This document shows positions 3,984 through 6,596 of a stretch of 27,422 nt of DNA, in pieces. The first letter of the stretch is position 1; each line of letters begins with the position of its first letter. Under the pieces are notes generated by a model, which saw nothing but the letters and a program-made list of their open reading frames with translations, was not told the DNA's origin and did not search any database. Both the position numbers and the translations under genes were made by a program. The stretch comes from Chloroflexota bacterium (lineage in GTDB: Bacteria; Chloroflexota; Limnocylindria; Limnocylindrales; CSP1-4): the NCBI GenBank assembly GCA_034666905.1, contig JAXDKX010000017.1, positions 1 through 27,422 on the forward strand, written 5' to 3'.

Positions 3984-6596
3984 ATGGCTGACCTGATCAC
4001 GCGCCCCGACACCGACGCCCGCGCAATGGAGCCAGAGACGCTCGTCGAGCGCCTGCTGGAAACCCAATCGCCGCAGCGGCCCCAGTCGTCGCCGCGCATC
4101 CGGATCGAGGTCGACGGCCGCGTCATCGAGGGATTCGAGGGCCAGACGATCCTCGAGGTCTGTCGTGACAACGGGATCGAGATTCCGACGCTGTGCTACG
4201 AACCGAAGCTGCCCGGCTTCGGGGCCTGCCGGATGTGCGTCGTCGAGGTCGAGGGCGAGGAGCACCCGCCAATCTCGTGCTCGCGTCTGTGCGAGCCCGA
4301 GATGAAGGTCCAGACCCAGACAGAGGAAGTCCGCCGCCTTCGTCGGACCAACCTCGAGCTGATCTTCTCCGACCACAACGCGTACTGCCTGCCGCCCTGC
4401 CAGAACAAGTGCCCGAGCCACATCGACATCCCGGGCTTCCTCAAGGCCAACGCAGAGGCCGACTGGCGGGAGTCGACGCGGATCTTCAAGCGGACGATCC
4501 CGTTCCCGAGCGTCCTTGGACGCGTCTGCCCGGCCCCGTGCGAGGAGCACTGCCGGCGCGACGAGGTGGACGAGGCGATCGCAATCCGCGACAGCCATCG
4601 CTACGCCGGCGACCAGGTCATCAAGTCGATGCTGGACGAGGGCGTGGATCCGCCGCTCCCGTTCGAGCGGCAGGCGCCGTCGGGCCGCCGGGCGGCCGTC
4701 ATCGGCTCCGGTCCGGCCGGCATGAGCGCCGCGTTCTACCTGCTGCTCGCCGGCCACGACGTGACCGTGTTCGAGCGCGATCCGGCACCCGGCGGGATGC
4801 TCCGCTACGGGATCCCGCAGTACCGGCTGCCCAAGATCGAGGTCCTCGAGGCCGAATACGAGTCCGTCACCAGGCTCGGCGGCAAGATGGTCTGCAACAG
4901 CGCGCTCGGTGTCGATTTCGGCCTGGACGACCTGGTCAACCAGGGCTTCGACGCCGTGGTCGTGGCGACCGGCTGCTACGAGACGAACAAGCTCGGCATC
5001 CCGGGCGAGGACGCGGCGGAATGCCTCGACGGGCTCGAGTACCTGAGGACGGCGACCCTGGGCCTTCCCTACCCCAACCACGCCGGCAGGCGCGTGGTGG
5101 TGATCGGCGGTGGGTTCACCTCGATGGACTGCTCGCGGACCTCCATCCGCCAGGGGGCGAAGGAAGTCACCCTGGTCTATCGCCGCGACATGAAGGACAT
5201 GCCCGCCTCGAACGAGGTCCACGAAGCGATCGAGGAAGGCGTCACCGCCATCTTCCAGGCCGGGCCGGTCCGGGTGATCGTGGACGACGCAGGCAAGGTC
5301 ACCGGCGTCGAGTTCATTCGCATGGCCCCCGGCGCGCCGGACGCGTCCGGACGACGCCGGCCCGAGCCAGCGCCGGGCACCGAGTTCACGATCCCGTGCG
5401 ATCGGGTCCTGCTGGCCATCGGCCAGGGCCCGGACCTGACCTGGATCGGCCCAGGCTCCGAGGGACCGGAAGCCACGAAGCAGCGCCGGCTGAAGGCGGA
5501 CGCGGTGACCTTCGAGACGGGCCGTCCCGGCGTCTTCGGGACTGGCGATGTCCGGGTCGGCGCGGCCACCGTGGTCCAGGCGATCGCCGAGGGACGGCGG
5601 GCCGCGTACGCCGTCGACGCCCACCTCAAGGGCCTCGACCTGTCGGTGATCCGGACTCGCCAGACCCTGGCCGAGCCACAGCCCGAGTTCCTCTCGATCG
5701 TGCCGTTCACCAGCGAGATCAAGGCGCCGCGCTACCGGATGACCGCGCTCGAGGCCGAGCAGCGCAATCACAGCTACATCGAGTACGAGCTGCCCTACAC
5801 GCGCGAGGAGGCCGTCGCCGAGTCGACCCGGTGCCTCCAGTGCACGTGCGAGGCGATCGGCTTCTGCGATCTCCGTCGCCTGGGCATCGAGTACGGGACC
5901 ACGCTCCAGACCCTGGAGCCGCAATTCAACTCGGGCGCCGGCTATCGGAGCGTCACCGAAAACCGGTTCACCGGCACCAATCACGACTACATCCGCGACG
6001 ACTCGCATGCCTTCATCCTGCGCGAGCCGTCACGCTGCATCGACTGTGGCCGCTGCGCCCAGGTCTGCTCCGAGGTGGTCGGTGCGGCCTGCTACGACTT
6101 CATGCGGATCGGGTTCGACTCGCTGGTGACCACACCGCTCGACATGAGCCTGAACGACACGCCGTGCGTGTCCTGCGGGCGCTGCGCCGAGACGTGCCCG
6201 ACGGGCGCGCTCATGCCCAAGCCGCGCGTCCTCCAGAAGTACGAGGTGGACGAGAGCCGCTGCATCCTGTGTGGCATCTGCGTGGACGCCTGCCCGTACG
6301 ACGCGCTGCGAGACGGGGCGGACATCGAGCTGTCGCACACGAGCCGCGACGAGCCGATGATCGACCTCATGGCCATCGCCGCGATCGATCGCGAGACGGA
6401 GGTCACGTATATCCGGCGCGAGCGCGACTGGGCGTCACGGGCGGCGGCCGCGGGCCGGATCGTCGACACTGCCCGGATGCTGCCGATGCTGCCCCCGACG
6501 ATCGGCGGGATCGCCGGCAACGGGAACGGCCATGGCCACGCCCATGGCAACGGTCACGGCGGCGGGACGGCCATCGCACCCTCCCACCACGAGTAG
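3984..6596 (+). CDS. Multidomain flavo-Fe-S protein: NuoG/HydA-type [2Fe-2S] domain + GltD-like FAD/NAD(P)H oxidoreductase + 2x[4Fe-4S] + NuoI C-terminal half (870 aa)
   Basis: IPTLCY..GACRMCVVE..ISC ([2Fe-2S]); PPCQNKCP and GRVCPAPCEEHCRR (GltD clusters); IGSGPAG (FAD); IGGGFTSMDC and VYRR (NADPH-type); RCIDCGRCAQVC and CVSCGRCAETCP; then an unpaired KYEVDESRCILCGICVDACPYDAL..G.DIELS motif (6261-6296). No H-cluster or Mo-bisPGD domain. Confidence 0.85.
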   Translation: MADLITRPDTDARAMEPETLVERLLETQSPQRPQSSPRIRIEVDGRVIEGFEGQTILEVCRDNGIEIPTLCYEPKLPGFGACRMCVVEVEGEEHPPISCSRLCEPEMKVQTQTEEVRRLRRTNLELIFSDHNAYCLPPCQNKCPSHIDIPGFLKANAEADWRESTRIFKRTIPFPSVLGRVCPAPCEEHCRRDEVDEAIAIRDSHRYAGDQVIKSMLDEGVDPPLPFERQAPSGRRAAVIGSGPAGMSAAFYLLLAGHDVTVFERDPAPGGMLRYGIPQYRLPKIEVLEAEYESVTRLGGKMVCNSALGVDFGLDDLVNQGFDAVVVATGCYETNKLGIPGEDAAECLDGLEYLRTATLGLPYPNHAGRRVVVIGGGFTSMDCSRTSIRQGAKEVTLVYRRDMKDMPASNEVHEAIEEGVTAIFQAGPVRVIVDDAGKVTGVEFIRMAPGAPDASGRRRPEPAPGTEFTIPCDRVLLAIGQGPDLTWIGPGSEGPEATKQRRLKADAVTFETGRPGVFGTGDVRVGAATVVQAIAEGRRAAYAVDAHLKGLDLSVIRTRQTLAEPQPEFLSIVPFTSEIKAPRYRMTALEAEQRNHSYIEYELPYTREEAVAESTRCLQCTCEAIGFCDLRRLGIEYGTTLQTLEPQFNSGAGYRSVTENRFTGTNHDYIRDDSHAFILREPSRCIDCGRCAQVCSEVVGAACYDFMRIGFDSLVTTPLDMSLNDTPCVSCGRCAETCPTGALMPKPRVLQKYEVDESRCILCGICVDACPYDALRDGADIELSHTSRDEPMIDLMAIAAIDRETEVTYIRRERDWASRAAAAGRIVDTARMLPMLPPTIGGIAGNGNGHGHAHGNGHGGGTAIAPSHHE
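6516..6566 (+). repeat. Low-complexity Gly/His/Asn coding tract (GNGNGHGHAHGNGHGGG)
   Basis: Direct translation of the tail of the 870-aa ORF. Confidence 0.8.

Follow-up and report, generated by a model that had tools for sequence, protein, structure and literature searches.

A 27,422-nucleotide (nt) stretch of Chloroflexota DNA (contig JAXDKX010000017.1 of assembly GCA_034666905.1, forward strand; the whole stretch is called the window here) contains three adjacent open reading frames, IE, F and G, situated between the nuoH and nuoJ genes of respiratory complex I. IE-F-G is, in our judgment fairly probably, an input module from the stock of the Stn/NfnABC enzymes which has lost the parts for electron bifurcation, is tied to complex I, and brings in electrons from reduced nicotinamide adenine dinucleotide phosphate (NADPH) by way of the GltD-type domain of G. 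By analogy with characterized relatives, abundant soil bacteria probably feed NADPH electrons into a proton-pumping complex I. The source is a metagenome-assembled genome (MAG) of 2.33 Mb, 78% complete, of the class Limnocylindria, phylum Chloroflexota. The proteins and loci nearest to the window all carry the names Chloroflexota, Candidatus Limnocylindrales or Limnocylindria. All positions given for the window refer to its forward strand, which also carries IE, F, G and the nuo genes of the window.

G (positions 3984-6596, 870 amino acids (aa)) is a StnC/NfnA-type large subunit with the C-terminal half of NuoI at its end. The order of domains is a NuoG-type [2Fe-2S] domain, H131-x3-C135, a permuted GltD of about 486 aa, C622-x5-C628, a 2x[4Fe-4S] ferredoxin domain and the NuoI C-terminal half. 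Pfam gives Fer2_4 at residues 38-113, the start of NADH-G_4Fe-4S_3 at 120-136, Fer4_20 at 135-214, Pyr_redox_2 at 237-537, Fer4_Nqo3 at 678-743 and Fer4 at 753-776. A first-pass annotation, made from the letters of the DNA, had read positions 3984-6212 as a GltD-like module inside a NuoG-type His-cluster motif, all within a divided NuoI. This nesting is correct, both from the motifs and from the matches to the NuoI model TIGR01971, and translation of the open reading frame and alignment place every residue and motif that it listed at the positions it gave. Position 6212 corresponds to residue 743, the end of the NuoG-type ferredoxin domain, and the open reading frame runs on to 6596.

The N1b-type [2Fe-2S] domain of G (residues 38-113, positions 4095-4322; PF13510, E-value = 3e-19) displays the invariant cysteines C71, C82, C85 and C99. 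The first interleaved motif, H131, C135, C139 and C143-P (positions 4374-4415), is conserved in 117 of the 117 sequences aligned, with C139 present in 116; the alignment consists of 23 complex-I-linked and 94 Stn-type sequences. The GltD/NfnL-like body (positions 4386-5594) comprises Fer4_20, a fold for flavin adenine dinucleotide (FAD) and a fold for NADPH. Fer4_20 at residues 135-214 holds C182, C186 and C190, ligands of the FAD-proximal cluster, plus H205. The FAD fold shows GSGPAG (residues 241-246) and GGMLRYGIP, and the nucleotide fold GGGFTSMD (375-382) and Y399-R400-R401 (positions 5178-5186). The last of these contains a basic pair past strand 2 of the second Rossmann fold, as in NADP(H)-specific sites of the GltD/NfnB type. 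The displaced GltD Fe-S piece with the second interleaved motif (positions 5766-5867), which is invariant in 117 of 117, reads ESTR-C617-LQ-C620 and then C622-x5-C628, followed by DLRR..EYG. The NuoG/HydA-type 2x[4Fe-4S] ferredoxin domain (positions 6015-6212; PF22117, Fer4_Nqo3, residues 678-743) carries C685, C688, C691 and C738 as one set of cysteines and C695, C728, C731 and C734 as another. G keeps the second cluster of this domain, which we take to be missing in Nqo3. The NuoI C-terminal half, with C760, C763, C766, C770-P and the next helix, is at positions 6222-6398, where TIGR01971 positions 71-116 match 6225-6362. G ends in a His/Gly-rich tail (positions 6495-6593) that is found in the window's own family only and is not present in other families of the class or in Ktedonobacteria. 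As the first-pass annotation had it, no hydrogenase or molybdopterin domain follows the ferredoxin domain; Pfam shows no match there, including PF00384 and PF04879, and nuoJ begins 10 nt after the stop codon of G.

The Fer4_20 profile matches G in two pieces. Profile positions 27-110 align with residues 135-214, and positions 2-29 align with residues 595-622, about 460 residues later (E-value = 5.7e-4 for a 66-aa piece). The circular permutation of the GltD Fe-S domain is therefore real, and the split of the match places the cut within the first GltD cluster motif, after its second Cys and before its third. The N5 motif of NuoG (H-x3-C-x2-C-x5-C) is not contiguous in G, with H131 and C135 separated by 486 residues from C622 and C628. 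Thus two peptide segments each pair two ligands of the His-ligated cluster with two ligands of the distal GltD cluster, and the two clusters have both segments in common. By analogy with the solved relatives, H131 and C135 would be ligands of a His-ligated cluster of the N5/A3 type, completed by C622 and C628, and C139 and C143 would be ligands of the GltD distal cluster A6, completed by C617 and C620.

H131, C135, C143, C182, C186, C190, C617, C620, C622, C628, Y399 and R401 are invariant in all 117 aligned sequences, and all ligands, together with R274 and Y399-R400-R401, are common to the 23 complex-I-linked and the 94 Stn-type sequences. Since the ligands and motifs are also invariant throughout the 23 complex-I-linked homologues, which come from eight families, the arrangement is not due to chance. 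The NuoG model TIGR01973 gives G 92 bits against a cut-off of 470, and the GltD models TIGR01317 and TIGR01318 are also below their cut-offs. Library matches of 812-853 aa that were considered as complex-I-linked G proteins from other phyla proved to be truncated Stn-type sequences, whose C-termini begin the molybdopterin domain.

Comparison of G with proteins of known structure by phmmer gives an E-value of 2e-159 with 9bov_A (NfnABC of Caldicellulosiruptor) and 2e-138 with 8oh5_C (StnABC of Sporomusa), colinear over residues 39-770; 9n5u_A (NfnABC of Thermococcus sibiricus) is the third solved match. An AlphaFold2 model built from the 117-sequence alignment has a pLDDT above 90 for most of residues 36-745, and its Foldseek TMq is 0.72, 0.70 and 0.72 to 9bov_A, 8oh5_C and 9n5u_A, respectively, over about 720 columns. 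In structural alignment, G is 36-38% identical to StnC/NfnA over residues 39-770, and the same permuted GltD, interleaved His-cluster and GltD-cluster motifs, and FAD and YRR sites are present. The GltD-in-NuoG design is the known StnC/NfnA architecture and is not new in itself. The first-pass reading holds for the nesting and for the electron route from FAD to the His-ligated cluster, while the design it described is not peculiar to this protein. StnABC and NfnABC are made of the same stock of three subunits, a NuoE-like, a NuoF-like and one that joins the NuoG N-terminus to GltD (solved entries are 8oh5/8oh9 from Sporomusa ovata, 9bov/9bp5 from Caldicellulosiruptor saccharolyticus and 9n5u/9n5v from Thermococcus sibiricus).

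The electron path in Stn is linear, FAD-C7-C6-C5-C4-C3-B1-FMN, where FMN is flavin mononucleotide (PMC10482914). In NfnABC it is FAD-A7-A6-A3-A2-A1-B1-FMN, with the second ferredoxin cluster and that of the molybdopterin domain on a branch that comes to a dead end (PMC11829005). The segment from NADPH to FAD, A7, A6 and A3 is a measured and modeled route in the Nfn and Stn enzymes (PMC11829005, PMC10482914), and the route from FAD through the GltD clusters to the His-ligated cluster that the first pass had proposed for G is as in these homologues. The GltD site uses NADP(H) in all characterized relatives.

Several differences set IE-F-G apart from Stn and Nfn. G does not have the Fdh/molybdopterin-like domain, with its A5 cluster and tetramer contacts, and a NuoI half is found there instead. 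The alignment of G to 9bov_A and 8oh5_C stops at about residue 770 and the protein ends 100 residues on; what replaces the molybdopterin-like domain is a single CxxCxxCxxxCP, continued by the sequence found after the second motif in NuoI. In Stn, the Fdh/NuoG-like domain of molybdopterin fold, with the A5/C1 cluster, is needed for the tetramer and for stability. Compared to BfuB, F is missing two domains, the B3/B4 ferredoxin domain and the thioredoxin-like one at the N-terminus. As the [2Fe-2S] cluster is absent from the NuoE-like part, the flavobicluster site for bifurcation cannot form. The [B1-FMN-C1] site is the one credited with bifurcation in the Stn and Nfn papers (PMC10482914, PMC11829005), and with parts of this site and the ferredoxin-binding domain missing, IE-F-G is a non-bifurcating derivative. 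IE-F-G is also encoded together with nuo genes, and from this gene context the module is probably membrane-bound, unlike Stn and Nfn.

Two residues of G are signatures of the complex-I-linked clade. H205 (positions 4596-4598) is situated where StnC K170 and the corresponding Lys of NfnA lie on the FAD-proximal cluster; all 23 complex-I-linked sequences have His at this place, and 93 of the 94 of Stn type have Lys. The role of this Lys has been described (PMC10482914, PMC11829005), and a passage in the latter paper cites a decrease in Stn activity of ~50% on mutation to Arg and of 100% on mutation to Cys. C703 (positions 6090-6092), 8 residues after C695, stands out by Cys conservation, as it is Cys in all 23 complex-I-linked and in none of the 94 Stn-type sequences. 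As guesses, H205 may re-tune the potential of the first cluster and C703 may be a contact or a ligand near the NuoI junction.

The other half of NuoI is in the IE protein (positions 1966-2646, 226 aa). IE consists of the NuoI N-terminal half at residues ~9-76 (with C56, C59, C62 and C66-P), a linker, and the helical N-domain of NuoE at residues 125-187. Of the 121 positions of TIGR01971, positions 1-65 match 1999-2196 in IE and positions 71-116 match the end of G; the matches are thus in two genes 4 kb apart and in this MAG are below the cut-off of the model. No NuoI above that cut-off is found in this MAG or in three near-complete relatives. IE and residues 13-75 of an intact NuoI share a 41% identity over 63 residues, and the C-terminal half of G and residues 90-131 of intact NuoI share 38%. 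The NuoE family PF01257 matches IE at positions 2-64 of its 145 only, and neither Pfam nor alignment shows a thioredoxin-like [2Fe-2S] domain or cluster ligands in IE. IE relatives in two other families display a vestigial thioredoxin-like domain with half of the cysteines.

The split NuoI halves are found in 121 of 121 Limnocylindria genomes sampled and an intact NuoI in only four; the 121-genome tallies for intact NuoI, NuoF and PntB include three unpublished genomes (G355, G359 and G374), without which the denominators are 118. IE-F-G is therefore the only NuoI-bearing system in 117 of the 121. An extra NuoF accompanies the intact NuoI in all four genomes; in two of them the genes share a contig at a distance of ~4 kb, and this suggests an additional canonical operon. 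In this MAG the only NuoF and NuoE homologues are those of the window, and a canonical nuoEFG for complex I was not found. Further NuoF-like genes are present in relatives of the same family. The extra NuoF of a genome of the same genus (L046, 7097-10041) is a NuoE-NuoF fusion found with an FdsA-like gene and fdhD, and belongs to a NAD-dependent formate dehydrogenase cluster. Two other contigs of this MAG (G000; C392, 414-1319, and C46, 647-1918) show an N-terminus like that of NuoG and, with a TGA in frame, a molybdopterin domain, and these fragments are probably from a NAD-dependent, possibly selenocysteine-containing, formate dehydrogenase.

The family occurs in at least 522 species-representative genomes, which is a lower bound as the search was saturated by relatives with 87% or greater identity. 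No distant members appeared in that genome search, and the additions from a protein atlas were all from Chloroflexota. PntB is present in 116 of the 121 class genomes, including this MAG, and the complex is thus no substitute for the proton-translocating transhydrogenase; PntAB could channel electrons from reduced nicotinamide adenine dinucleotide (NADH) into an NADPH-specific complex I. PntB is absent from three of the four genomes with intact NuoI (G308, G329 and G332) vs two of the 117 without, and as these are close kin this is a lead and not a statistic.

A phylum-wide search with IE gives full-length matches of ~30% identity in three families outside Limnocylindria. The G proteins of these families are 75-89% identical to proteins of Ktedonobacterales MAGs, a range that takes in the cultured Thermogemmatispora aurantia, T. 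carboxidivorans, T. argillosa, Dictyobacter arantiisoli and Tengunoibacter tsumagoiensis. In Ktedonobacteria, IE-F-G is not situated between nuoH and nuoJ. The nuoB gene is immediately upstream of it in seven of seven loci, including that of T. carboxidivorans, and the nuoB-IE-F-G cluster thus places the whole proposed wire from FAD to N2 in four genes. One complete Ktedonobacteria genome of 5.07 Mb contains a canonical nuo operon in which nuoI is intact (L032) and, at separate loci, nuoA-C-D-H without nuoB and nuoI (L031), nuoB-IE-F-G (L023) and nuoJ-K-L-M-N (L130). The tally is two NuoH, two NuoJ, one intact NuoI and one split NuoI, and this gene accounting balances only if IE and G together provide NuoI to the second complex. 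The Ktedonobacteria IE-F-G had been considered as a soluble enzyme on its own, since tblastn searches placed neither nuoH nor nuoJ in its neighborhood; it was rejected as such because of nuoB upstream in all seven loci and the complementary loci of the one whole genome. Genome papers on Thermogemmatispora and on cave Ktedonobacteria list only "nuo" (PMC6776052, PMC13374853).

The F protein (positions 2651-3976, 441 aa) is a NuoF/BfuB-like subunit with PF01512 and PF10589. Its best matches in the PDB are 9bov_B, 7q4v_B and 8oh5_B, of which only chain residues 110-526 of the 584-aa BfuB are covered; the Fe-S domains that bifurcating BfuB has at both termini are missing in F. The Gly-rich loop, GEE(T/S), RPPxP and PT..N..ET are conserved, along with most of the N3 ligands. 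The FMN pocket reads NGYGADP where the canonical sequence is NADE(S/G)EPG. The FMN contacts vary by family, with NADE changed to N(A/G/L)(Y/M)(D/G/E) and then (A/S)D, GAY changed to GFM, GSS, GAM or TSL, and the first N of NNVET variable between families. The N3 motif is C-G-K-T-I-P-C (positions 3701-3709) and the middle Cys is missing; this residue is Thr or Ala in the window's family and in two others. Where the middle Cys is lost, a Glu is found three residues past the fourth Cys (region ~3812-3826), as in LCDHE, LCAHE and LCxLE vs LCGFG. This may represent a ligand swap that keeps N3, or a [3Fe-4S] cluster, although the coincidence amounts to at most one or two evolutionary events and is a hint only. 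F may be a second entry, for NADH, or a scaffold, and, judged from its motifs, it may equally well have kept or lost the oxidation of NADH.

In the explanation that we favor, NADPH would bind the GltD-type domain of G and reduce FAD, and electrons would pass singly via the pair of [4Fe-4S] clusters in GltD to the N5-type cluster with its His ligand. NADPH is suggested as the nucleotide at the GltD site by homology and by the invariant YRR. From the His-ligated cluster, we infer that electrons would reach N6a/N6b, directly or via the two clusters of the ferredoxin domain. N6a/N6b would be held jointly by the NuoI halves, that is, by the C-terminus of G and the N-terminus of IE, and would pass electrons to N2 in NuoB and to quinone, with proton pumping by NuoH and NuoJ-N; this direction, too, would be the one in use. 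A stronger version, which we find doubtful, is that the sole complex I of Limnocylindria is an NADPH-specific pump. The NuoE and NuoF remnants would then oxidize no NADH, which would enter the chain solely via NDH-2 or via PntAB and then this enzyme, and the change of Lys to His and Cys703 would have re-tuned the wire to quinone.

A number of points weigh against the favored explanation. For every member of the family, support for the function rests on sequences and models, and the preference for NADPH over NADH comes by analogy. Residues 750-870 of G have a pLDDT below 50 in the AlphaFold2 model, which fits a half-domain in need of a partner and may also reflect an alignment dominated by Stn-type sequences. 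A co-fold of G residues 670-830, four [4Fe-4S] clusters and IE residues 1-110, run with three controls, scores 0.35, 0.35 and 0.37 vs 0.00 for the best control, and calibration indicates that a pass at this level is more often wrong than right unless the pairing is likely beforehand. The predicted interface, between G 747-802 and IE 40-84, is that of the two Cys motifs, and the co-fold hints that the NuoI halves of IE and G may pair there. Contigs of relatives in soil metatranscriptomes cover the operon, but these are short, 88-95% alike and possibly due to DNA carry-over. They come from three soil libraries, of which two are apparently one data set; they were rejected as evidence for transcription of this operon and show only that relatives are in RNA libraries. 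With PntAB in 116 of 121 genomes, a pump that burns NADPH could run a costly cycle unless controlled. And F, with the kept motifs and N3 ligands described above, leaves room for NADH as the main donor.

This last point leads to the alternative in which NADH, oxidized at the FMN site of F, is the main donor and GltD a side port, serving a minor donor or forming a membrane-anchored, non-bifurcating wire between NADH and NADP+. F is retained in every genome, even the streamlined ones of 1.0-1.4 Mb, its Gly-rich loop and the GEE(T/S), RPPxP and PT..N..ET motifs are conserved, the gain of Glu in the three families that lost the N3 Cys looks like a swap to keep the cluster, and Stn itself has NADPH:NAD+ activity (PMC10482914). 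However, the FMN contacts are altered and vary by family whereas the GltD motifs are invariant, and the cluster of NuoE has been lost. A wire left open between the nucleotide pools would oppose PntAB, which is present, and Ktedonobacteria already have a canonical NADH complex I. On balance we consider NADH as main donor unlikely, but as an alternative to be taken seriously.

Complex I is reversible, and the module might run the other way, with quinol and the proton-motive force used to reduce NADP+ at the GltD site for biosynthetic NADPH. The GltD sites of Stn and Nfn do reduce NADP+ physiologically (PMC10482914, PMC11829005), and the first-pass annotation had allowed for this direction, but the genomes here are of the aerobic heterotroph type with PntAB in 116 of 121, nothing seen in this analysis speaks for a lithotrophic, quinol-generating lifestyle that would need it, and most of the class has no other complex I, so that this one must serve forward respiration. 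Reverse operation as the main role is thus quite improbable. Still less credible is a soluble Stn-like oxidoreductase that merely lies among nuo genes, with the NuoI-like pieces being generic ferredoxin motifs. The closest characterized relatives are soluble, nuoH and nuoJ lie a long way from the cluster in Ktedonobacteria, and either ferredoxin repeat of NuoI gives an equally good score with the C-terminal half of G. Against this, IE opens with a NuoI-specific segment (the 41% identity over 63 residues), the two halves match complementary parts of the NuoI model, the domains for tetramerization (Fdh-like) and ferredoxin binding of Stn are gone, and in one relative G is fused to NuoJ. A soluble enzyme would also leave 117 of 121 class genomes with a complex I but without NuoI. 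The gene accounting in Ktedonobacteria, where nuoB is joined to the cluster and one whole genome has a second nuo set without exactly nuoB and nuoI, is the strongest argument against it.

The remainder of the operon is that of a complex I. The C-terminal part of nuoD (positions 1-595; PF00346, E-value = 1e-66) opens the window, and the start of this gene is on contig C85 of the same MAG, the last ~120 nt of which are identical to the start of the window. C85 contains nuoA, nuoB and the start of nuoD, and its NuoB carries the N2 cysteines, four in number, at the canonical places (tandem Cys, single Cys and Cys-Pro). The ~560-nt gap between nuoB and nuoD (L029, 14086-14650) gives no match to NuoC (PF00329) in the frames tested, and could have room for a divergent or short nuoC. 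Downstream of nuoD are nuoH (615-1955; PF00146, E-value = 6e-104), the IE, F and G open reading frames, nuoJ (6606-7199; PF00499), which is in the same reading frame as G, nuoK (7196-7507, from frame translation), which overlaps the nuoJ stop, nuoL (7504-9462), nuoM (about 9465-11135, start from frame translation) and nuoN (to 12610), the last three with PF00361 and PF00662. Across C85 and the window the order is thus nuoA-B-..-D-H-[IE-F-G]-J-K-L-M-N, and the core genes A, B, D, H, J, K, L, M and N are present (A, B and D on C85; D, H and J-N in the window). The rest of the window is unrelated and includes a thiol peroxidase, CorA, MFS, an inositol-lipid operon and PMT.

The high GC content of this DNA produces long stop-free wrong frames, such as an open reading frame of 1104 aa at positions 4193-7507 across G, nuoJ and nuoK. 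A listed open reading frame of 109 aa at 7156-7485 was rejected as nuoK and is a wrong-frame artifact. An apparent F-G fusion of 1268 or 1375 aa in locus L026 is likewise a stop-free wrong frame, with F and G in separate frames. In the same locus (genome G034, 14416-16050), ~1.6 kb lie between G and nuoJ in one family of the class. The G-NuoJ fusion, a 1075-aa open reading frame (P0039), is found in a relative on a 1.57-Mb contig. This may be real or a sequencing error; as G and nuoJ are in the same frame and 10 nt apart, loss of one stop codon is enough to produce it.

The known inputs to complex I are NADH (NuoEFG), F420H2 (FpoF) and ferredoxin (NDH-1). If the favored explanation is true, a complex I wired to an NADPH flavoprotein would be a fourth kind of electron entry, more striking with a core Fe-S subunit split between two chains, and would be an example of module exchange between soluble bifurcating enzymes and respiratory complexes. 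Limnocylindria is one of the most abundant classes of soil bacteria and the family is far from uncommon. Should NADPH prove to be the true donor, redox balance and energy yield would have to be modeled anew for these bacteria of soil and fresh water. As the cultured Thermogemmatispora, Dictyobacter and Tengunoibacter carry the module, the hypothesis can be tested at the bench. In the full-text literature, subscription journals not being covered, we found neither a GltD/Stn-type module described on complex I nor a NuoI in two halves.

The module can be compared to several known systems. With GltD, NfnB and domains I-III of DPD, G shares the FAD and NADPH Rossmann folds and two [4Fe-4S] clusters, and Foldseek TMt values to NfnB, NfnI-L and GltD are 0.77-0.80; unlike GltD, the Fe-S domain of G is circularly permuted and embedded in another protein, and there is no GltB partner. 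The predicted Nuo-Bfu of Geobacter, Deferribacteres, Planctomycetes and Nitrospirae would also have a Bfu-related module in place of NuoEFG in the middle of the operon (Schut et al., 2022, PMC9304861). However, Nuo-Bfu shows the full bifurcating cofactors of BfuB/BfuC, an intact NuoI and no GltD, with NADH plus ferredoxin proposed (PMC9304861); the data set of that study required the BfuB ferredoxin domain, and the G family was thus excluded. In Mbx-like operons a GltD-type NAD(P)-binding flavoprotein likewise occurs with complex-I-like membrane modules (Degli Esposti, 2015, PMC4758237), but there the flavoprotein substitutes for NuoI and is proposed to reduce NAD(P)+ in Mbx-type complexes that oxidize ferredoxin. 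Parts of NuoG or NuoF and a split NuoI are missing in that system, which does not involve a complex I that reduces quinone. The canonical peripheral arm of Thermus thermophilus (2fug/4hea) resembles IE-F-G in N1b, N4 and the His-ligated N5-type cluster in G, in the NuoF fold with its Gly-rich loop, in the NuoI Cys motifs and N-terminal segment, and in the position between nuoH and nuoJ. It differs in that NuoI is here on two polypeptides and its halves are separated in the operon by coding sequence for ~1,400 residues of other subunits, there is no N1a, one Cys is missing from the N3 motif in this family, the C-terminal two thirds of NuoG are absent, and an extra FAD/NADPH domain with two clusters is placed to feed the N5-type cluster of G. 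New as a variant are the joining of the StnC/NfnA architecture to a NuoI in two halves and the proposed role of the product as an input to complex I.

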